Shown: one piece after another, positions 6,492-28,822 of the stretch | Position numbering within the stretch: the stretch's first letter is position 1 | How the letters are laid out: each line of letters starts with the position of its first letter | From: Klebsiella phage ST16-OXA48phi5.3 | Direction: 5' to 3' (one strand) | DNA: 29,301 bases | Sequence record: MK416014.1 | Notes under the pieces: generated by a model | Databases searched by the model: none | What the model saw: only the letters and a program-made list of their open reading frames with translations | What the model was told of the DNA's origin: nothing | Program-made: the position numbers and the translations under genes

Positions 6492-7166
6492 TTAACCGAA
6501 TCTGTTAATGTTGAAAGGAACTGATGAGATAACTTTTGACTGGATGTAGAGCATATCCAAGGCATCCTTCTCGATGCTCCAAGATTGGTAATTCGAGTTG
6601 TCAGATAATACTACAATTTTGCTGCCTATTTTTTGCAGCCTCTTTACATAACATTCACCTTCAAAACAAAAAGCATAAATCCCGTCACCATCGAAGTATG
6701 TTATTGTTTTATCTAGAAATAATAAATCACCCGGTGCTATTGTTGGCGACATGCTATCACCCCTGGCATTGCCAATCTCAATGTTCTTGAAGGGTCTGTT
6801 GCCTACAACTTGACGAGCGTACTCGGGGTCTAACTCTATGGAGCGGACCACATCAATGAAGTCACTTTTCACGCTAACTCCATCACCACAACTGAATTCA
6901 ATATCTAATACTTTGAATTTAACGCTATCAGTATCTCCTTTTTGAGCGGACGCAGGGAAGGTGGCGGGTTGTCCCTCACCCAGAAACCAGGATTGTGGGT
7001 AACCACTGATTTCAGAAAGCTGGGCTAATCTCTTACCCCTTGGGACAGTGTCTCCCTTCGTCCAGTAGACAACCGTCTGCGTGCTAACCCCTAACTGACG
7101 AGCCAGCTCGGCTTTACTCCACCCTTTTTCCTTCAGAAGTTCTTGAATCATGTTTGCCGTGGCCAC
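6492..7166 (-). CDS. cI: CI-like prophage repressor: XRE-type HTH plus C-terminal S24 (LexA-like) peptidase domain.
   Basis: 224 aa. N-terminal HTH (WSKAELARQLGVSTQTVVYWTKG). C-terminal GDSMSPTI (catalytic Ser) and ..VKRL.. (Lys) define the S24 autocleavage module. GTG start 7166 with GGAGAG SD. Divergent from cro. Confidence 0.9.
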   Translation of the reverse strand: MATANMIQELLKEKGWSKAELARQLGVSTQTVVYWTKGDTVPRGKRLAQLSEISGYPQSWFLGEGQPATFPASAQKGDTDSVKFKVLDIEFSCGDGVSVKSDFIDVVRSIELDPEYARQVVGNRPFKNIEIGNARGDSMSPTIAPGDLLFLDKTITYFDGDGIYAFCFEGECYVKRLQKIGSKIVVLSDNSNYQSWSIEKDALDMLYIQSKVISSVPFNINRFG

Positions 7167-10280: not shown

Positions 10281-11243
10281 ATGAAAACAGCAGAAGCTGC
10301 AAAAGGCCGGTGGGCTGAAATCTTTGAATATTACGGCTTACCTCCTTTCACCGGGAAACACCATTACAAGGGCGAGTGTCCGGTATGTAAGGCGAGGGGG
10401 AAGTTCCGCGTAGATGACCGTGATGGTCAGGGTACATGGATTTGTGTATGTGGTAGCGGCGACGGCATGAAGCTGCTGACCCTGACCCAGTCAAAAAGCT
10501 TTTCCGCCATTTGCGCAGAAGTGGACCAGCTCATCGGGAATAACTATCAGCGCATCAACGTGCCTGCTAACAGTTCGGCGGCGCGGCAGCGCCAGCGAGT
10601 CATTAGTAAGTTTTCAAAGTTGCTCGATTTACGGGGTACTAGCGCGGCTGGTTACCTTCTGCAACGTGGGATAAGCCGCCTGCCGGCAGAAGGCATCCGT
10701 TTTTGTGACCGCCAACGCCATGCGGGGCGCGTTTATCAAGCGCTGTATGCCCTGGCTACCGATGACAAAGCTGAGCTTTGTTACCTGCACCAGACGCTGC
10801 TGGACGGCGACAGGAAGGCAGATATTGATAGCGCCAAACGTCTTAAGTCGCTTCAAGAGGACAGCTATCTGGATCACGCCCGCTCTGTGGCCATTCGCAT
10901 GTTTCCGGTATCAACGACGATCGGCATCGCCGAAGGTATCGAAACAGCACTCTCCTGTTATCAGGTTTATGGCGTCAATACCTGGGCGGTAATCAACAGC
11001 GGGTTTATGAAGAAATTCCGGGTACCAGCGGGTGTGAAGCATCTGATTATTTTTGCCGACATGGACAAGCACTCTGCAACTGGACATGCCGCGGCGTTCG
11101 AGTGCGCCCACGCAAACCTGCTGGCGAAAAACGACCTGGTAAAAGTCAGCATCCGCTGGCCCGATAACGGTGATTTTAACGACATGCTCATGAATGGTGA
11201 TCAGGTTCGTGAGCAGGTATTTTACAAAAAGGTGGCTGCATGA
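10281..11243 (+). CDS. DNA primase with a Zn-ribbon and a TOPRIM domain.
   Basis: N-terminal CPVCKARGKF..WICVCGSGDG zinc-ribbon like the primase-helicase Zn-binding domain. Central IAEGIETALS (TOPRIM Glu) and FADMDKH (DxD). Start overlaps the helicase stop. Confidence 0.75.
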   Translation: MKTAEAAKGRWAEIFEYYGLPPFTGKHHYKGECPVCKARGKFRVDDRDGQGTWICVCGSGDGMKLLTLTQSKSFSAICAEVDQLIGNNYQRINVPANSSAARQRQRVISKFSKLLDLRGTSAAGYLLQRGISRLPAEGIRFCDRQRHAGRVYQALYALATDDKAELCYLHQTLLDGDRKADIDSAKRLKSLQEDSYLDHARSVAIRMFPVSTTIGIAEGIETALSCYQVYGVNTWAVINSGFMKKFRVPAGVKHLIIFADMDKHSATGHAAAFECAHANLLAKNDLVKVSIRWPDNGDFNDMLMNGDQVREQVFYKKVAA

Positions 11244-12022
11244 AACTTGAAGCATCGTTAAAGCATTTTAGCCCTCAGGGCATGCATACTAGCGACGACG
11301 TGAAAAGCACATCTCCAAATCGACTGACCGGAACAGATGTTATGGCGGCCATCGGTACCACCAGCAGTCGTGCGCGCTTCGGCCTTGCCGCTTTCCTCGG
11401 AAAGGCTGGTATCAGCAAAACGGACGAACAGCTTGCAATTCAGGCGCTGGCGCAGTTTGCCATCAAAAACGCTCCTAAAAATGTCCGCAAAGCCGCTGGT
11501 GACAAGCTCGCCGCCTGCATGTTGACGCTGGCGCAATTTGCCTTTGCGGAATACTCACGTTCGGCGGCCACCAGAGCAACGTGTCAAAGCTGCAGCGGTA
11601 CCGGCTTTATTTCCCGCCATGAAGATGTAATTAAGCACCCCGGTATTTTCGATGCTGACGGTGTCGAAGTGAAGGCCCCAAAGATTAGAAATGAACTGGT
11701 GAAAAGGGTCTGTGGAGTGTGCGGAGGAAAGAAAGTGATCCATGCGCGATGCAGGTGTGGTGGTAAAGGGGAGGTGTTAGATCGCAAAGCGACCAAAGAA
11801 CTTGGCGCACCGGTTTTCAAAACATGTGAACGCTGCTCTGGTAATGGCTTCTCTGTTGTACCCTCTGCGACGGTACACCGCGCCATTCTGAAGCGTCTCC
11901 CGGATCTCCATCAGTCTTCGTGGTCACGCAACTGGAAGCCGTTCTATGAAGGGCTGGTGGATATGCTTCACAAAGGAGAGAGACAGGCAGCGGCTGAATT
12001 TGAGAAGGCGACCATTTATTGA
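11240..12022 (+). CDS. Q: Late-gene antiterminator Q, lambda-Q family.
   Basis: 260 aa, collinear with lambda Q as I recall it. LTGTDVMAAIG aligns with LSGTDVMAAMG; FGLAAFLGK with FGMAAFCGK; AQFAFAEYSRSAAT with ATFAYADYCRSAAT; CQSCSGTGF with CRDCHGTGR (zinc site); SWSRNWKPFYEGLV with TWSRTVKPLYDALV. ATGA overlap with primase. Confidence 0.8.
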   Translation: MKLEASLKHFSPQGMHTSDDVKSTSPNRLTGTDVMAAIGTTSSRARFGLAAFLGKAGISKTDEQLAIQALAQFAIKNAPKNVRKAAGDKLAACMLTLAQFAFAEYSRSAATRATCQSCSGTGFISRHEDVIKHPGIFDADGVEVKAPKIRNELVKRVCGVCGGKKVIHARCRCGGKGEVLDRKATKELGAPVFKTCERCSGNGFSVVPSATVHRAILKRLPDLHQSSWSRNWKPFYEGLVDMLHKGERQAAAEFEKATIY

Positions 12023-13347: not shown

Positions 13348-13743
13348 ATGTCCGATCCTGTTTCTGGCACAACGGTAGCTGCTGGCGGGCTGATGGGGGC
13401 CAGTATGTTCGGCCTTGCAACTGGCATTGATTATGGCGTGGTATTTGGTGCGTTCGCTGGGGCAGTGTTCTATGTCGCTACGGCAGTAAATATCAGCCGC
13501 CTAAAGCTGGTGGGCTACTTCATAACTTCATTCATCTTCGGTGTGATTGGTGCTCCTCTGCTGGGGTCTTACTTCTCAAAGTGGACGGGGTACAGTGACA
13601 GGCCGCTTGATGCACTCGGTGCTGTAATCGTTGCAGCCATAGCCATTAAATTGCTGACGTTCGTTAACAGTCAGGATCTGGGTAGCCTGTTTGGGATTCT
13701 CTCTCGCTTACGTGGAGGAGGGACAAGCAATGGTAACAAGTGA
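13348..13743 (+). CDS. Putative holin: 131-aa membrane protein with ~4 predicted TM segments.
   Basis: SD AAGAGGGGG. Hydrophobic stretches GLMGASMFGLATGIDYGVVFGAFAGAVFYVATAV, FITSFIFGVIGAPLLG and ALGAVIVAAIAIKLL. First gene after the tandem terminators and upstream of the endolysin. Confidence 0.6.
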   Translation: MSDPVSGTTVAAGGLMGASMFGLATGIDYGVVFGAFAGAVFYVATAVNISRLKLVGYFITSFIFGVIGAPLLGSYFSKWTGYSDRPLDALGAVIVAAIAIKLLTFVNSQDLGSLFGILSRLRGGGTSNGNK

Positions 13744-14011
13744 TCCGAGCGCAATCGTCAATGCGGTGATATGCGCTGTAATTGTTGGGGCGTTGATGTT
13801 CTATCGGCGCGACGGGTCAAGACACCGCCCCATGATATCGCTGATGGCTTACTTCACTGTGCTGGTTTATGCCAGCATCCCTTTCCGTTTCCTGTTTGGC
13901 TTGTACGAGTCATCCCACTGGCTGGTGGTACTGGCAAACATTCTTATCTGCGGCGCAGTTCTCTGGTTCAGGGGGAATATAGCGCGTCTGGTTGATGCAC
14001 TGAGGCACTAA
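13730..14011 (+). CDS. Second small membrane protein (93 aa, ~3 TM), a holin/antiholin partner candidate.
   Basis: Within the 13691-14011 frame; ATG 13730 has GGAGGAGGG upstream and overlaps the previous stop. TM stretches AIVNAVICAVIVGALMF, ISLMAYFTVLVYASIPF and LVVLANILICGAVLWF. Its stop overlaps the endolysin ATG (TAATGA). Confidence 0.5.
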   Translation: MVTSDPSAIVNAVICAVIVGALMFYRRDGSRHRPMISLMAYFTVLVYASIPFRFLFGLYESSHWLVVLANILICGAVLWFRGNIARLVDALRH

Positions 14012-14640
14012 TGAATCAATCACAATTTCAAAAGGCGGCTGGCATCAGCGCCGGGTTAGCTGTGCGCTGGTTTCCGCATATTGCAGCCGCGATGAAAGAG
14101 TTTGGCATCACTGCTCCACTCGATCAGGCAATGTTCATTGCCCAGATGGGACATGAGTCCGGAGGCTTTACCCGGCTGGTGGAAAATCTGAACTATGCAG
14201 CAGATAGCCTTGTGCCTACGTTCGGTAAACACCGTATCACCGCCCAGCAGGCCGCCGCACTCGGCAGAACGGCAACGCAGCCAGCTAATCAGCGAGCAAT
14301 CGCGAATCTGGTGTATGGGGGCGAGTGGGGAAAAAAGAATCTCGGTAATCAGGTTGCCGGTGATGGCTGGAAATATCGCGGTCGCGGTCTGAAACAAGTC
14401 ACGGGCCTGAGCAACTATCGCAGCTGCGGACTGGCGCTGAAGCTTGAACTTGTCACCCAGCCTGAGCTGCTGGAGCGAGATGATTACGCAGCGCGTTCAG
14501 CAGCATGGTTTTATGTTTCCCACGGTTGCCTGCTTCATTCCGGCGACGTGGAGCGTGTAACGCTGCTTATTAACGGTGGTCGAAACGGTCTGGATAAACG
14601 CCGAGCGCTGTTTAACCTGGCTAAATCTGTACTGGTATGA
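14011..14640 (+). CDS. Endolysin, glycoside hydrolase family 19 (chitinase-class lysozyme).
   Basis: 209 aa. MFIAQMGHESGGFT..NLNY..YGGEWGKKNLGNQ..GDGWKYRGRGLKQVTG..NY matches GH19 catalytic-core motifs. Sits in lysis-cassette position. Confidence 0.85.
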   Translation: MNQSQFQKAAGISAGLAVRWFPHIAAAMKEFGITAPLDQAMFIAQMGHESGGFTRLVENLNYAADSLVPTFGKHRITAQQAAALGRTATQPANQRAIANLVYGGEWGKKNLGNQVAGDGWKYRGRGLKQVTGLSNYRSCGLALKLELVTQPELLERDDYAARSAAWFYVSHGCLLHSGDVERVTLLINGGRNGLDKRRALFNLAKSVLV

Positions 14641-14647
14641 GGTCACT

Positions 14648-14923
14648 ATGGGCATTGAAATGATTATTGGTTTGGCAACTGCTTTGCTGGCGGTTATCGC
14701 TGGCGCGTTCGGTATTGGCCACGCTCGCGGGACCAGTAAAGCTGAATCAAAGGCCGAGCAGCAGCGCAGCGAAGAGAACGCCGCTGCTACAGTCGCCGCG
14801 GCAGAACGCCGGGCTGATGCAACGAAAGGGGCCAGCGATGTTGAAGAGAGCGTTAAGCGTATGCCTGATGACGATGTTGATCGCGAGCTGCGCGAAAAGT
14901 TTACCCGCCCCGGTAGTCGTTGA
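14648..14923 (+). CDS. i-spanin (Rz-like).
   Basis: Track ORF 14576-14923; I call the start at ATG 14648 (MGIEMIIG.., GAGGT SD) rather than the upstream track start. N-terminal TM MIIGLATALLAVIAGAF, then a charged, coiled-coil-like periplasmic domain. Immediately after the endolysin. Confidence 0.6.
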   Translation: MGIEMIIGLATALLAVIAGAFGIGHARGTSKAESKAEQQRSEENAAATVAAAERRADATKGASDVEESVKRMPDDDVDRELREKFTRPGSR

Positions 14924-15068
14924 CACGGCCTGCAGCTGGGTGCGGATCATCTACCTGACTGACCACGATATAGACGTGATGGATAAACAGACGAAGCGCG
15001 ACATTCTGGCGCACAACAAATCCGTGCAGGCCAACTGCCCGCAATCAACAGACAGGGTTACACGATGA
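14838..15068 (+). CDS. o-spanin (Rz1-like lipoprotein), overlapped architecture.
   Basis: Alternative frame. It starts inside the i-spanin gene and runs 145 nt past its end. MLKRALSVCLMTMLIASCAKS carries a lipobox (LIASC) signal; the mature part is Pro-rich. Confidence 0.6.
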   Translation: MLKRALSVCLMTMLIASCAKSLPAPVVVDTACSWVRIIYLTDHDIDVMDKQTKRDILAHNKSVQANCPQSTDRVTR

Positions 15069-24612: not shown

Positions 24613-25104
24613 ATGTCTGTATTAACGCAAGGCACGCAGTTTTTTGTGCTCAAGTCTGGCGTGGTCAGCGAGGTTGAATGCATCACCAGTTTCAACCCCG
24701 GCGGGAACCCTGCCGATCAGATTGAAGATACCTGTCTGAGTGAACGGGATTCCAGAACCTACAAAAAGGGGCTTAAAACGCCTGCGGCCGCAACCGTCGG
24801 GCTTAACGCTGATCCGACGAACGCCAGCCACATTATGTTGCATGGCCTCGCTGAAGCGAATGACCAGACGCCGTTAACTTTTGCGGTTGGCTGGTCAGAT
24901 GGAACCAGTGTCCCGACAGCCGCCGCTCCTGGCGCTGAGGATGCTGTTGATGGCCTGGTGCTGCCATCGGATCGCACCTGGTTCATTTTCCAGGGTTACG
25001 TTTCTGACTTCCCGTTTGATTTTCAGGGTAACGCTGTTGTGACGACCTCCGCCACGATCCAGCGGTCTGGCTCTTCCGTATGGGTGCCGAAGGCCGCAGC
25101 GTAA
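24613..25104 (+). CDS. Major tail (tube) protein.
   Basis: 163 aa between the tail terminator and the G/GT chaperone. Bracketed by strong terminators. GGAGA SD. Conserved FF.LKSG......I.S....G motif. Confidence 0.75.
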
Positions 25105-25111
25105 TTAATAT

Positions 25112-25136
25112 GCCCGGTTATCCGGGCTTTTCTTTT
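25112..25136 (+). terminator. Rho-independent terminator after the major tail gene.
   Basis: GCCCGG-ttat-CCGGGC followed by TTTTCTTTT. Confidence 0.7.
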
Positions 25137-25147
25137 CAGGAGCTGAA

Positions 25148-25501
25148 ATGCAACTTACCCTCGATACGTTAAAAGAAACCGGTGCGTTTACCGGGCGTCC
25201 CGTGGAAAAAGAAATTAAGTGGAAAGGCCGTGACGGGAAAGAGCATATCGCAACCGTCTATGTGCGCCCGATGGGCTACCACACCACTAAAGCTGAACTG
25301 CTGGCGTATAACGGGAAATCGGACCCGATTGCTGAGCGCATTGCGGCGCATATTTGCGATCAGGACGGCGCCCCAGTGTTTACTGCGGCTGACATTCTTG
25401 GGACTGCTACCCCGGATCGTGGGGCGCTGGACGGTCCGATTGTTATGGCCCTCCTGGCTGCAATTCATGATGTAAACGAACTGGGAAAGACTACGAGCTA
25501 A
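25148..25501 (+). CDS. Tail assembly chaperone G.
   Basis: 117 aa with AGGAG SD. Precedes the tape measure gene and has a downstream -1 frame extension. Confidence 0.75.
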   Translation: MQLTLDTLKETGAFTGRPVEKEIKWKGRDGKEHIATVYVRPMGYHTTKAELLAYNGKSDPIAERIAAHICDQDGAPVFTAADILGTATPDRGALDGPIVMALLAAIHDVNELGKTTS

Positions 25502-25797
25502 CCGGCGAGGATGAATTCTGGTGCGAACTGGTGATGAACGGCATCGGAGGCCGCACCATCGCAGAGGCTCAGGAACGGATGAGCCGTAGGGAATTTCTGG
25601 TTTGGCTCAAGTACCGTGAGAAGTACGGACCGCTCAATATCATGATGCGTACCGAGTGGGGGGCTTCGCTGGTGGCTTCTGTCCTTGCGAACATCAATAA
25701 GGCAAAGAACACGCCGCCGTTCAAGGTAAGTGACTTTGCACCGCATATCAACGAAGCGCCATTATCTCTGGAAGAGGCCATGAAATCCTGGGACTAA
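25148..25797 (+). CDS. GT fusion tail assembly chaperone, produced by a -1 frameshift at 25483-25489.
   Basis: G frame up to 25489, then the -1 frame (..GKDYELTGEDEFWCELVMNGIGGRT...KSWD*) to 25797. The T-like extension ends 575 nt before the TMP start. Confidence 0.65.
25483..25489 (+). other. Programmed -1 ribosomal frameshift slippery heptamer G GGA AAG.
   Basis: The heptamer is in the zero frame of G, 4 codons before the G stop. The -1 frame is open from 25471 to 25797. Same heptamer as lambda G/GT. Confidence 0.7.
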
Positions 25798-25862
25798 TTA
25801 TTGTTTTTGCCTTTAAAAAAATCCTGCTACCCTTTTGGTAACTATTATCACGAGGGAATGAT

Positions 25863-26330
25863 ATGAAGAGTTCAGGGCAGTTGTTATCGCTGGCAGGTAT
25901 AATTCTCGCGGTGTACTCATTGTTCTTTATGGATGTGAGTGTTGAGGTTGGCGATGGTACAAGAGTTAATAATATTGGGCTAATGGCTCAACAGCAAAAC
26001 TATTTATTAGTTGCGGTTGTTCTTTTTCTTGCTGGTATCTTTATTTCATTCTCAGGGAGAAAGAAGTCATTACAAGAGGTAGATTTCACTAAAATAGAAT
26101 CTTTCTCATCAGATGACTTTGTTTCTTTGAAAGATGGTGAACCATGTCTTAATATCTTGGCTGTAGACAATCTTGCAATGATGTTTTTAAAAAAACATGG
26201 TTCAAGTAGTGTTAATGATATCCTTTTTATGAATATGCCTTTAATCGATAGGTTAGAACAAGGTCTCCCTGAACCACTAAGGAAAGATTTTAAATCTACC
26301 CTTAAAAGGAGGTTAAAGGACAATTGTTAA
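25863..26330 (+). CDS. AT-rich moron: 155-aa inner-membrane protein (2 TM) with a C-terminal soluble domain.
   Basis: About 33% GC against ~52% in the flanks. GAGGGA SD. TM1 LLSLAGIILAVYSLFFM and TM2 NYLLVAVVLFLAGIFISF. Followed directly by its own terminator. Inserted between GT and the TMP. Confidence 0.65.
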   Translation: MKSSGQLLSLAGIILAVYSLFFMDVSVEVGDGTRVNNIGLMAQQQNYLLVAVVLFLAGIFISFSGRKKSLQEVDFTKIESFSSDDFVSLKDGEPCLNILAVDNLAMMFLKKHGSSSVNDILFMNMPLIDRLEQGLPEPLRKDFKSTLKRRLKDNC

Positions 26331-26336
26331 AATAAC

Positions 26337-26360
26337 GCCCGCTAAAAGCGGGCTTTTTTT
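26337..26360 (+). terminator. Rho-independent terminator ending the moron.
   Basis: GCCCGC-taaaa-GCGGGC followed by T7. Confidence 0.7.
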
Positions 26361-26374
26361 CACTTGGAGAATTT

Positions 26375-28822
26375 ATGGCTGGCAAGTCACTGGGAACTCT
26401 GACTATCGACTTGGTTGCAAAAGTTGGTGGATTTGTTTCAGGGATGGATAAAGCTGAGCGTGCATCAGCCAAGTGGAGCAAGCAGGTACAAGATGATGTG
26501 GCAAAATCCAGTGCTGCACTAGCAGGTATAGGGGCAGCAGCTATTGCAGCTGGGCTGGCTGTTGGTGCATCCGGATTTCAATTACTGAAATCCACATCCA
26601 GGCAAATAGCAGAAACTGACCGCTGGGCTAAATCATTACAATTATCTACCCAGGAACTTCTTGCTTGGCAGTTTGCAGCTGAAAAGGCTGGTGTCTCCGG
26701 TGACCAAATGGCTGATATCTTCAAGGATATTGGTGATAAGATTGGTGACGCGGTATTAAATAAATCAGGTGAAGCTGTTGATGCGCTCAACGCTCTTGGA
26801 TTATCTGCGGAAAAACTATCAAAAGTCAGTCCAGATAAACAATTGCTCGCTATCGGTGAATCTTTGGAGAAAATTAGTACTAATGCCGAGAAGACCACCA
26901 TTCTTGAAAGTTTGGGTAACGACCTTTCAAAATTACTTCCTTTGTTTGATAACAACAACCAAAAACTCAAACAGTTTATTGACCTTGCTAAAGATTATGG
27001 TGTTGCTCCTGATCCATCCTCTATTGATGATTTAGTAAAGGTTAATCAACTTTTTGAAGATATGGAGGCTCAGGTTGCAGGGCTCAAAATTGAGATTGCA
27101 GCCGGTTTGGCAAAAGTTGATCTAACTCCTTTGCAGGGCTCACTTGATAAGCTTCATGACGTCCTGACTGACCCCTTGGTTCTTCAAGGAATTTCTGATC
27201 TTGTATCGGAAGTCGCTCAACTTGCTGGATGGCTTGTAAAAGCAGCTGCAGGTGCGGGCCAACTAGCAGCCAGCACAGGAAACCGTTTTGCGGCACTTAG
27301 TGGCAAGATCGACCTAACAAATATAGACCAAGTTAATGAACGTATTGAATACCTGCAAAAAATTCTTGAAGGAAAAAAAGGTTTTTACTCTCAAAGTGAG
27401 TCTATGTTTGGTTGGATTACAGGGGTAGATGACAGCGCGAAAGCACTAAATGATGAACTGCTATCTCTTATAGAAACAAGAGATAAATTTTCTAAAGCTA
27501 GTAAATCGGTGCTGCCCCTTCAGGTAGCCACTGTGGGAACGGACAACCCATTTTCTTTACCTCCTGGTGGTACGAACGGAAAACCTGTTAAAACACCAAC
27601 AAGTAAAACAGAAAATGCTTTTAACAGTAGATTGCTTGATCTACAAAAACAAGCTGCCCTTATTGAAACTACTGGTAAAAAAACAGCTGAGGTTACCGAG
27701 CTCGAAAAAATAAATTTTGATATTACCAGTGGCAATCTTAAAAAATTGTCAGAAGCTCAAAAAGAACAGCTTCGCACTGCTGCAAAAGCCCTGGATTCTA
27801 AAAAGGAAGAGCTTAGGCTTAATCAGGAAAATGCCCGGGTTGCGGAATATGTTTCCGGCTTAGAAAGGCAGAATAAGTTAGTGCAGCAAGGATTTGATAA
27901 TGAAATTGTTGGCCGTTATTCTGGTGGTCGTGAGCGATCACGCATGCAGGATAATAATGATATACAGCAGGATTTTGCATATCAACAGGATGATCTTTTA
28001 AACCAGCTCCAATCTGGAGATATAGACCAAAGTCTTTACGATAAAAAGAAAGAAGCATTACAGAATTCTCTTGATGAGAGGCTTAAAATACAGGAGGAAT
28101 ATTACAAGAAGCAGGATGAGTTACAAAATGATGGTGCTGCTGGTTTTATATCAGGGCTAGCAACGCAAATAGAAGCATCAATGGATTTATACACCAACAT
28201 GCAGCAGGTTGGTGCACAGGCATTTAGCAGCTTAACGGATATGATTATTGACTGGGCAGAAACCGGAAAGTTAAATGTTAAAGATTTTGCTTCGACATTT
28301 CTGCAATCTGTTGGTAGCACACTTCTTTCTTACGCTGCTGCCCAAGTTGCAATGGCGGGTTTGCAGGCCTTTACAGCAATGATCGGCGTGCCATTTGTTG
28401 GACCCGAAATAGCAGGACCGGCAGCAATAGCCGCAACTGCGGCTGCTGGAGTACTGGCGATAGGTGTTGGTACAGCCCTTCAGGGCCAGGCTCACGACGG
28501 TATCGACTCTGTGCCCGAAACTGGAACCTGGCTCCTGCAGAAAGGTGAACGCGTTACGACTGCTAAAACCAGCGCCAAACTTGATGCCACTCTGGATCGA
28601 GTAGCAAACCAGTCAACAGGGGGCGGCGCGATTTATTCGCCCACAATCAATATCCCCATCAATGGTAACCCTTCCGATGCAACTTTGGCGCTGGTCCGTA
28701 AAGCTGCAGATGAGGGGGCAGAAAGGGGATACCGGAAGGCGGTTAATTCAGTCGCAAGCGGTCAGGGTGATTTGCATAAGGCCTTGATGGGGAAAACTAC
28801 CTCGGGGAGGAAAATTAGCTAA
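26375..28822 (+). CDS. Tail tape measure protein.
   Basis: 815 aa. Long Ala/Gln/Leu-rich coiled-coil protein with N-terminal and internal hydrophobic Gly/Ala stretches (AALAGIGAAAIAAGLAVGA; PAAIAATAAAGVLAIGVG). Downstream of G/GT. GGAG SD. Confidence 0.88.
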   Translation: MAGKSLGTLTIDLVAKVGGFVSGMDKAERASAKWSKQVQDDVAKSSAALAGIGAAAIAAGLAVGASGFQLLKSTSRQIAETDRWAKSLQLSTQELLAWQFAAEKAGVSGDQMADIFKDIGDKIGDAVLNKSGEAVDALNALGLSAEKLSKVSPDKQLLAIGESLEKISTNAEKTTILESLGNDLSKLLPLFDNNNQKLKQFIDLAKDYGVAPDPSSIDDLVKVNQLFEDMEAQVAGLKIEIAAGLAKVDLTPLQGSLDKLHDVLTDPLVLQGISDLVSEVAQLAGWLVKAAAGAGQLAASTGNRFAALSGKIDLTNIDQVNERIEYLQKILEGKKGFYSQSESMFGWITGVDDSAKALNDELLSLIETRDKFSKASKSVLPLQVATVGTDNPFSLPPGGTNGKPVKTPTSKTENAFNSRLLDLQKQAALIETTGKKTAEVTELEKINFDITSGNLKKLSEAQKEQLRTAAKALDSKKEELRLNQENARVAEYVSGLERQNKLVQQGFDNEIVGRYSGGRERSRMQDNNDIQQDFAYQQDDLLNQLQSGDIDQSLYDKKKEALQNSLDERLKIQEEYYKKQDELQNDGAAGFISGLATQIEASMDLYTNMQQVGAQAFSSLTDMIIDWAETGKLNVKDFASTFLQSVGSTLLSYAAAQVAMAGLQAFTAMIGVPFVGPEIAGPAAIAATAAAGVLAIGVGTALQGQAHDGIDSVPETGTWLLQKGERVTTAKTSAKLDATLDRVANQSTGGGAIYSPTINIPINGNPSDATLALVRKAADEGAERGYRKAVNSVASGQGDLHKALMGKTTSGRKIS

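Follow-up and report, generated by a model that had tools for sequence, protein, structure and literature searches.

An AT-rich cassette flanked by the tail chaperone and tape-measure genes in a Klebsiella prophage encodes a predicted inner-membrane protein of a large uncharacterized family

What is a small gene with its own ribosome-binding site and its own terminator doing inside the tail operon of a temperate phage? The question is raised by Klebsiella phage ST16-OXA48phi5.3 (MK416014.1), of which a stretch of 29,301 nucleotides (nt), hereafter the window, was analyzed; unless another phage or contig is named, coordinates refer to the shown strand of this window. Between the T frame of the G/G-T tail assembly chaperone (25531-25797, + strand; PF06223 Phage_tail_T, E=1.3e-8; phrog_337), which ends with a TAA stop codon at 25795-25797, and an HK022-type tail tape-measure gene (26375-28822, + strand; phrog_2854, E=4e-278; PF09718) lies an inserted cassette at 25798-26364 (+ strand), comprising everything from the T stop to the Shine-Dalgarno sequence of the tape-measure gene. 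It contains the 155-amino acid (aa) open reading frame (ORF) that an earlier note, made from the sequence alone, had placed between the chaperone and tape-measure genes. This gene, designated ORF155, occupies 25863-26330 on the + strand (155 codons plus stop, with an ATG start).

The cassette is very probably an accessory moron encoding an inner-membrane protein. As to the function of that protein, analogy with known systems makes an anti-phage role of one kind or another a fairly probable one, and the specific proposal that ORF155 blocks phage genome entry, the likeliest single explanation, is assigned a probability of about 45%. The grounds for these assessments, and the competing explanations, are presented below.

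The chaperone/tape-measure junction as a cargo slot

In phage HK022 the junction is empty, with 19 base pairs (bp) separating the T stop from the tape-measure ATG, and the cassette bounds proposed in the earlier note (25798-26362) coincide with the insertion/deletion relative to this empty junction. The N-terminal 289 aa of the tape-measure protein are 68.5% identical to HK022 gp16. The occupancy of the junction was surveyed in the 80 IMG/VR viral contigs with the most similar tape-measure N-terminus. Approximately 46 of them held a member of the ORF155 family, 27 were empty (their tape-measure N-termini being 89-92% identical), and about 11 carried other adenine/thymine (AT)-rich cargo followed by terminators of its own, namely (i) lipoproteins of 227 and 115 aa, (ii) an exonuclease-like ORF accompanied by a membrane protein, and (iii) small ORFs. 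Among isolated phages, KPP5665-2 and KpF5 have a 123-aa lipoprotein in this position and vB_EcoS-733R5 a 125-aa signal-peptide protein, in both cases with a guanine/cytosine (GC) content of 39-40% and a dedicated terminator. The chaperone/tape-measure junction is a cargo slot for AT-rich envelope proteins, and the existence of empty junctions and of alternative cargos means that ORF155 is dispensable cargo and not a component of the tail.

The definition of a moron followed here reportedly stems from the HK97/HK022 comparison of Juhala, Hendrix and colleagues. The ORF155 cassette conforms to it in occurring in some phages and being missing from the corresponding site in others that are otherwise alike, in having its own terminator, and in a composition unlike that of its upstream neighbors, the downstream tape-measure gene being AT-rich too. 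The definition further includes a promoter belonging to the moron, for which a candidate is described below, and expression from the repressed prophage. Morons at this junction are textbook material and the existence of one here is unsurprising. HK97 gene 15, the first moron described, is located between the tail chaperone and tape-measure genes and is expressed from the prophage (PMC3594210); its position is exactly that of ORF155, which bears out the description of the site as a known moron hotspot.

These observations bear directly on the possibility that ORF155 is a virion structural or tail-assembly component, the only argument for which is its position inside the tail operon. The empty junctions in HK022 and in 27 of the 80 contigs, the unrelated cargos at the same site, the presence of family members in many different locations, one of them close to cI, and the character of the product as an integral membrane protein all stand against it, and a structural role is effectively excluded. 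Homologs that are invariably structural, which the earlier note had named as grounds for abandoning its interpretation, are ruled out by the same empty junctions and other cargos.

Several features of the alternative occupants were recorded. The slots of five sister phages (L013, 1566-1937; L014, 1575-1952; L084; L092; L125) encode unrelated AT-rich lipoproteins or a signal-peptide protein, each followed by a terminator; the lipobox of the lipoproteins reads LLGGC, LLSGC or LALAGC. In contig L121, where the tape-measure ATG is at 2501, the slot holds two genes of 38-40% GC with one common terminator, located ~1260 to 60 nt before that ATG. The first, an ORF of 247 aa, combines a DnaQ-like exonuclease motif (VVLDTETTG) with a hydrophobic segment at the C-terminus, the second encodes a 151-aa protein with an N-terminal transmembrane helix, and the pair may constitute a two-gene defense cassette. 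Finally, L114 and four similar contigs carry a diverged subfamily of 165-171 aa and 39% GC, located at -559 to -43 from the tape-measure ATG, which shares the two-helix membrane module of ORF155 (see below) and has either an N-terminal extension or an ambiguous start codon.

Base composition and regulatory signals of the cassette

ORF155 has a GC content of 35.3% and a third-codon-position GC (GC3) of 0.31, with a minimum of 32% among 200-nt segments, compared to 50-56% in the upstream tail genes and 51-57% in the flanking segments. The drop in GC described in the earlier note was thus found on the upstream side; the implied return to ~52% downstream was not, since AT-richness extends into the tape-measure gene (26675-28175, 38-45% GC; GC3 0.34). 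The low-GC tract covers the moron and most of the tape-measure gene (26675-28300), which suggests a mosaic history of this segment. Orthologous tape-measure genes at other loci have GC3 values of 0.45-0.50.

Low GC could be taken as a sign of recent transfer, and the distribution of the orthologs is informative in this respect. They were found at 12 independent loci, with 41-98% identity, and their position was invariably between T and the tape-measure gene. The GC content of the gene at these loci is 34-37% and that of its neighbors 50-59%. The divergence of ORF155 (41-52%) resembles that of the neighboring G (45-60%) and tape-measure (48-58%) proteins. Family relatives in other phages and at other positions reach 55% GC, and the protein sequence therefore does not force AT-richness on the gene. 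Because orthologs at 41-78% identity share both the junction and a GC content of 34-37%, the low GC of ORF155 is maintained and is not a mark of recent acquisition. H-NS-dependent regulation and promoter or expression constraints are two possibilities for how it is kept. In all orthologs (L006, L007, L009, L038-L045) GC3 is ~0.30 with synonymous sites saturated, and the flanking genes have values of 0.5-0.7. Copies with ~98% identity are confined to five Klebsiella phages and, among 5426 E. coli genomes, to 3.

The Shine-Dalgarno sequence and the terminator reported in the earlier note are both conserved. The former, GAGGGA (25852-25857, + strand), was read from the sequence, and the pattern G.GGG is kept in the orthologs. 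The latter is an intrinsic terminator at 26337-26360 (+ strand; stem-loop 26337-26353) composed of GCCCGC-TAAAA-GCGGGC followed by seven T residues. Its folding energy is -13.4 kcal/mol (z = -3.45 against shuffled sequences), and it is present in 10/10 orthologs, with 100% of alignment cells paired, compensatory changes in three of the six pairs, and a score matched by 0/500 shuffles. The stem, CCCGC(T)...(A)GCGGG, recurs after unrelated slot cargos (L046, 1399-1423; L013; L014; L084; L125), including HK97 gene 15; this may reflect either a shared right-hand recombination boundary or convergence on a common form of terminator.

As regards the start of transcription, the earlier note had proposed a search of 25798-25862 for a sigma-70 promoter. 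A two-hexamer scan of this interval identified none. The interval does contain a conserved sequence that matches an extended -10 element, TGCTACCCT (25825-25833, + strand), with TG at -15/-14, T at -12, A at -11 and T at -7. The block CCTGCTAC..TTTT is identical in 9/9 alignable orthologs, even though synonymous divergence (dS) exceeds 1 and is saturated. In the form TG-n-T-A-n-n-n-T, it is invariant at the positions that count in a sigma-70 promoter of the extended -10 class, and in some orthologs the variable ones within it approach consensus (TACTAT, TACCAT). The pattern TGNTANNNT is expected 0.05 times in the 65-nt spacer. Further upstream, in the -35 region of the candidate promoter, is a T-rich block, GTTTTTGCC (25803-25811, + strand), in which the columns G.TTTT..C are conserved across nine orthologs. 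The best match to TTGACA in this region is 3-4/6 at a spacing of 15-16 bp, indicating a weak -35 at best. Transcription is predicted to start near 25840, giving a 23-nt leader that includes the Shine-Dalgarno sequence.

Two other interpretations of the upstream region were rejected. TATTAT (25843-25848) was discarded as a -10 because it is unconserved in the orthologs and the resulting start would fall inside the Shine-Dalgarno sequence. A role of the conserved block as an RNA element was dropped, as Rfam gave no significant match on 25400-26800 and the leader RNA folds no better than shuffled sequences (z = -0.89). The CCTGCTAC block is absent upstream of the zinc-ribbon relatives of ORF155 at other genomic positions, and is thus specific to the ORF155 subfamily.

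These signals suggest how the gene might be expressed at the two stages of the phage cycle. In the lysogen, ORF155 would be transcribed from its own weak extended -10 promoter, with transcription stopped at its own terminator. In the established model of lambda and HK97, Q-modified late transcription reads through terminators, and during lytic growth of the present phage it would likewise pass the terminator of the cassette. The window carries a lambdoid prophage, with an integrase (301-1482), a CI-like repressor (6492-7166, - strand) and a Q-like late antiterminator (11240-12022, + strand; phrog_127, E=2.9e-101). A full lysis cassette of holins, endolysin and spanin (13348-15068) precedes the head and tail genes in window order. 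Upstream of the T frame are the tail tube gene (24613-25104; PF16460) and the G chaperone gene (25148-25501; PF16459), which are separated by a terminator-like hairpin (25112-25136, + strand; GCCCGG-TTAT-CCGGGC and a T-run). HK97 has an annotated putative terminator at the matching position. The tail operon therefore contains two internal terminators, at 25112-25136 and 26337-26360, and late transcription must pass both.

Such an arrangement raises the possibility that ORF155 is an accessory of the lytic cycle, which would block wasteful injection by progeny phages into infected or lysing cells, tune the timing of lysis, or aid the phage's own tape-measure protein at the membrane. The gene is oriented like the tail operon and is located downstream of a Q-like antiterminator expected to read through terminators, its linkage to the tape-measure lineage is stable down to 41% identity, and the adjoining tape-measure gene shares its AT-richness. 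This explanation is nevertheless improbable, given that HK022 and many relatives manage without ORF155, that the window already has a full lysis cassette, and that a separate terminator and a conserved promoter-like block would be needless if the gene were only co-transcribed late.

ORF155 and its protein family

ORF155 is a real gene under strong purifying selection. Its homologs form 45 clusters in a large protein database, nearly all of them 155 aa long and from Klebsiella and Enterobacter, down to 41% identity. Among the orthologs dS is greater than 1 and the ratio of nonsynonymous to synonymous divergence (dN/dS) is 0.06-0.22, with values of 0.06-0.09 in the membrane module and 0.11-0.22 in the C-terminal domain. 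An antisense ORF at 26000-26323 (107 aa), itself not analyzed, was set aside because of the strong purifying selection on the sense frame.

An AlphaFold model of the protein (mean predicted local distance difference test score, pLDDT, 81.8) contains helices at residues 2-22 and 38-64 and strands at 26-29 and 33-36, with pLDDT values of 84-92. Both this model and hydropathy support the two transmembrane helices (TM1 and TM2) anticipated in the earlier note. ORF155 is predicted to be a two-pass inner-membrane protein with a periplasmic hairpin and with both termini in the cytoplasm, the latter because of K2 before TM1 and RKK after TM2. Three parts can be distinguished: (i) an N-terminal membrane module of TM1, periplasmic beta-hairpin loop and TM2 (aa 1-64; 25863-26054, + strand), (ii) a basic low-confidence linker (aa 65-82; 26055-26108, + strand; pLDDT 59-60, below 50 at residues 67-69), and (iii) a cytoplasmic C-terminal domain (aa 83-155; 26109-26327, + strand) consisting of a beta-hairpin and four helices, with the motif LP..LR..F. 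The cytoplasmic part, which is helical, comprises 86 aa. Within the protein, conservation is highest in the hairpin region, FFMDVSV..GDGTRVNNIGLMAQQQN.

Searches of ORF155 against Pfam, NCBIfam and PADLOC gave nothing above the cut-off, the best matches being ATP1G1 (15.3 bits against a cut-off of 26.9) and Phage_holin_3_6 (14.6 against 28.4). Neither a signal peptide nor a lipobox was present, no nuclease or other enzyme fold was found in the C-terminal domain, and no structural or family match to the protein gave a mechanism. The lack of a recognizable family, as stated in the earlier note, therefore holds for the curated libraries. It does not hold more widely: residues 1-69 match phrog_8032 (E=4e-18), and ORF155 is a ribbon-less member of a family composed of a two-helix membrane module, a zinc ribbon and a helical C-terminal domain. 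By sequence comparison, then, it is no orphan and can be tied to a large uncharacterized family. At least 470 clusters belong to this family, none of them with a functional name; its members are annotated as "zinc ribbon domain-containing protein". A literature search found no relevant characterization of the family.

The relationship is based on both ends of the protein. The N-terminal module shares the invariant residues of the family and its loop motif D[VT]SV...RVNNIGLM..QN. At the C-terminus, the helical domain has the LP..LR..F motif, and its profile matches family members from Serratia (41 bits), Escherichia (30 bits), Leclercia and Xenorhabdus. The P and F of the motif are invariant or nearly so, and a joint alignment with the relatives yielded a confident model. 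Between the two, at the position of the ORF155 linker, the relatives carry a ribbon of ~30 residues (CxxC...CxxC), seen as a gap of ~30 columns in the aligned ORF155. The zinc-ribbon model PF13248 matches the relatives only; ORF155 has no such match and no CxxC pair. Its membrane module is 45-51% identical to that of the enterobacterial prophage relatives, of which gp43 of Cronobacter phage phiES15 and QPB12517 of Providencia phage PSTCR8lys are examples.

Like ORF155, the zinc-ribbon versions in enterobacterial prophages are single genes, usually with their own terminator, and occur in siphophage tail operons. Unlike the ORF155 subfamily, which is fixed at one junction and consistently AT-rich, they are found at varied positions: in L020 and phage ST11-VIM1phi8.2 they precede the tape-measure gene, there within an unrelated tail module, and in phiES15 and L024 they follow it; PSTCR8lys has its member between M and L, and L025 between K and I; the L019 copy adjoins a Doc toxin moron, and that of PseuP_222 is near cI. 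Such a distribution is the hallmark of mobile cargo favoring tail operons. In E. coli genomes the zinc-ribbon version is essentially absent (a partial match in 1 of 5426). The ST11-VIM1phi8.2 member (L003, 4001-4557) is annotated as two adjacent ORFs of 122 and 60 aa, and this copy may be frameshifted or split.

The membrane module alone is more widespread still, with 2,503 cluster representatives at 50% identity in many phyla. No Pfam model covers it; 5 of 117 sampled representatives match DUF3185 (PF11381, small proteins with two transmembrane helices; E down to 1.8e-5), which ORF155 does not. The module is sometimes the whole protein (57-95 aa), is most often joined to a zinc ribbon (46 of the 117), and is occasionally fused to SHOCT, SH3, PDZ, ankyrin, SPOR, FGE-sulfatase or pilin-like domains. 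The module with its loop motif, which ORF155 encodes at 25932-26000, occurs (L016-L037) in Proteobacteria, Verrucomicrobia, Bacteroidetes, Acidobacteria, Cyanobacteria, Armatimonadota and a genome of the candidate phyla radiation.

Such an architecture would also be compatible with an abortive-infection or membrane-disrupting defense, in which the two-helix effector oligomerizes and depolarizes the inner membrane once the zinc ribbon, the C-terminal domain or both have sensed a phage product. A conserved N-terminal module joined to variable C-terminal domains resembles the effector-plus-sensor layout generally known from defense systems; the C-terminal domain evolves two to three times faster than the module, some family members consist of the module alone, and weak holin-like matches were obtained for ORF155 and for 2 of the 117 module representatives. 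On the other hand, PADLOC gave no match, the holin matches lie far under the cut-off, and a constitutive pore former would be costly, so that we consider this mechanism unlikely. Nor is ORF155 a recognizable holin in its own right, the family match being below the cut-off and the lysis cassette being located elsewhere.

The breadth of the family likewise bears on a non-defense function in lysogenic conversion, that is, an alteration of envelope physiology, stress tolerance or host interaction. Lambda Bor and Lom are factors of this kind. Other cargos of the slot are lipoproteins and secreted proteins without a known role, the module is also known outside phage contexts, as fusions with SPOR, PDZ, SH3, FGE-sulfatase and pilin-like domains, and morons in general encode diverse fitness factors (PMC3594210). 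Against this, the enterobacterial family strongly prefers tail operons, especially sites beside tape-measure genes, and the exact positional analog, HK97 gp15, is an exclusion protein; a conversion factor is thus rather improbable.

Comparison with known exclusion systems and a possible block to genome entry

Blocking of phage genome entry is the reading to which HK97 gp15 lends most weight. This protein inserts in the inner membrane and prevents genome entry in a tail-dependent manner, resulting in superinfection exclusion (PMC3594210). The two loci share the junction and their local layout (terminator, G/GT, moron, terminator, tape-measure gene), and both morons are AT-rich, small, absent from HK022 and assigned to the inner membrane. 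The proteins themselves show no sequence similarity (BLASTP E=8.9), and ORF155 does not belong to the gp15/YebO family. gp15 is 62 aa long with one transmembrane helix, whereas ORF155 has 155 aa, two such helices, a periplasmic hairpin and a folded cytoplasmic domain. They also differ in the associated tail type: gp15 is active against HK97-type tails but ineffective where tail tube and tape-measure proteins are of the HK022 type (PMC10883804), while ORF155 resides in an HK022-type tail module. Since gp15 fails against HK022-type tails, a tail of the type found here would need a different excluder.

Other systems were compared in the same way. SieA of P22, a prophage inner-membrane protein of ~160 aa with a conserved cytoplasmic motif, keeps DNA from being transferred through the inner membrane (PMC10883804). 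Its three predicted transmembrane helices and its motif FxRYPxEAxxFNK are both absent from ORF155; in addition, SieA acts on podovirus ejection proteins and its gene lies outside the tail operon. SNIPE, a membrane-anchored defense nuclease with a cytoplasmic domain, works where siphophages inject their genomes and is found in association with tape-measure proteins (PMC13190303). Compared by description, it shares with ORF155 the combination of membrane anchor and cytoplasmic domain and differs in being a nuclease, ORF155 having no enzyme fold. The exclusion lipoproteins Cor, Llp and Ltp are, like ORF155, envelope-targeted products of prophage morons, and lipoprotein cassettes share the slot in sister phages; unlike them, ORF155 is an integral inner-membrane protein. 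No homology of ORF155 to a known Sie, Cor, Imm or Abi protein was detected.

By analogy with HK97 gp15, ORF155 would act in the inner membrane to stop superinfecting siphophages from delivering their genomes across it, leaving outer-membrane receptors untouched. The periplasmic hairpin more likely has a constant task, such as self-assembly or the binding of a universal envelope component, because it is near-invariant across phyla and unlikely itself to recognize a rapidly changing phage protein. The cytoplasmic domain, which evolves faster, would in that case confer target specificity. It is from position, localization and analogy that we infer exclusion or abortive infection, the two activities suggested in the earlier note. 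A bolder proposal holds that the whole two-helix RVNNIGLM family is a widespread class of single-gene inner-membrane blockers of phage entry, whose hairpin engages a universal component of siphophage DNA entry and whose cytoplasmic domains set specificity, that of ORF155 being matched to HK022-type tape-measure proteins. This is doubtful, although conceivable.

Four points weigh against an entry block by ORF155. The most conserved element of the protein is the periplasmic loop, which is unexpected for an arms-race surface facing variable tape-measure proteins. In many phyla the membrane module is also present in surroundings that do not look phage-like, and so it is not intrinsically an anti-phage device. 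A single junction has been retained through divergence to 41% identity, as would suit a role in the tail or injection biology of the phage itself. Lastly, the candidate promoter is a poor one, with a weak -10 hexamer (TACCCT) and a poor -35.

ORF155 connects a gene of Klebsiella prophages, whose cluster at 90% identity comprises 809 member sequences, with a large uncharacterized family of membrane proteins repeatedly carried by temperate siphophages beside their tail genes. In sister phages the same slot offers a menu of other envelope proteins, and near-identical tail modules with an empty slot provide a natural control. The cassette is a clean experimental lead by virtue of its link to this family, its conserved regulatory signals and the empty-slot controls. 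Were ORF155 to block genome entry, the very few inner-membrane exclusion factors of Gram-negative bacteria would be joined by a new protein family, with relevance to the choice of therapeutic phages against lysogenic Klebsiella.

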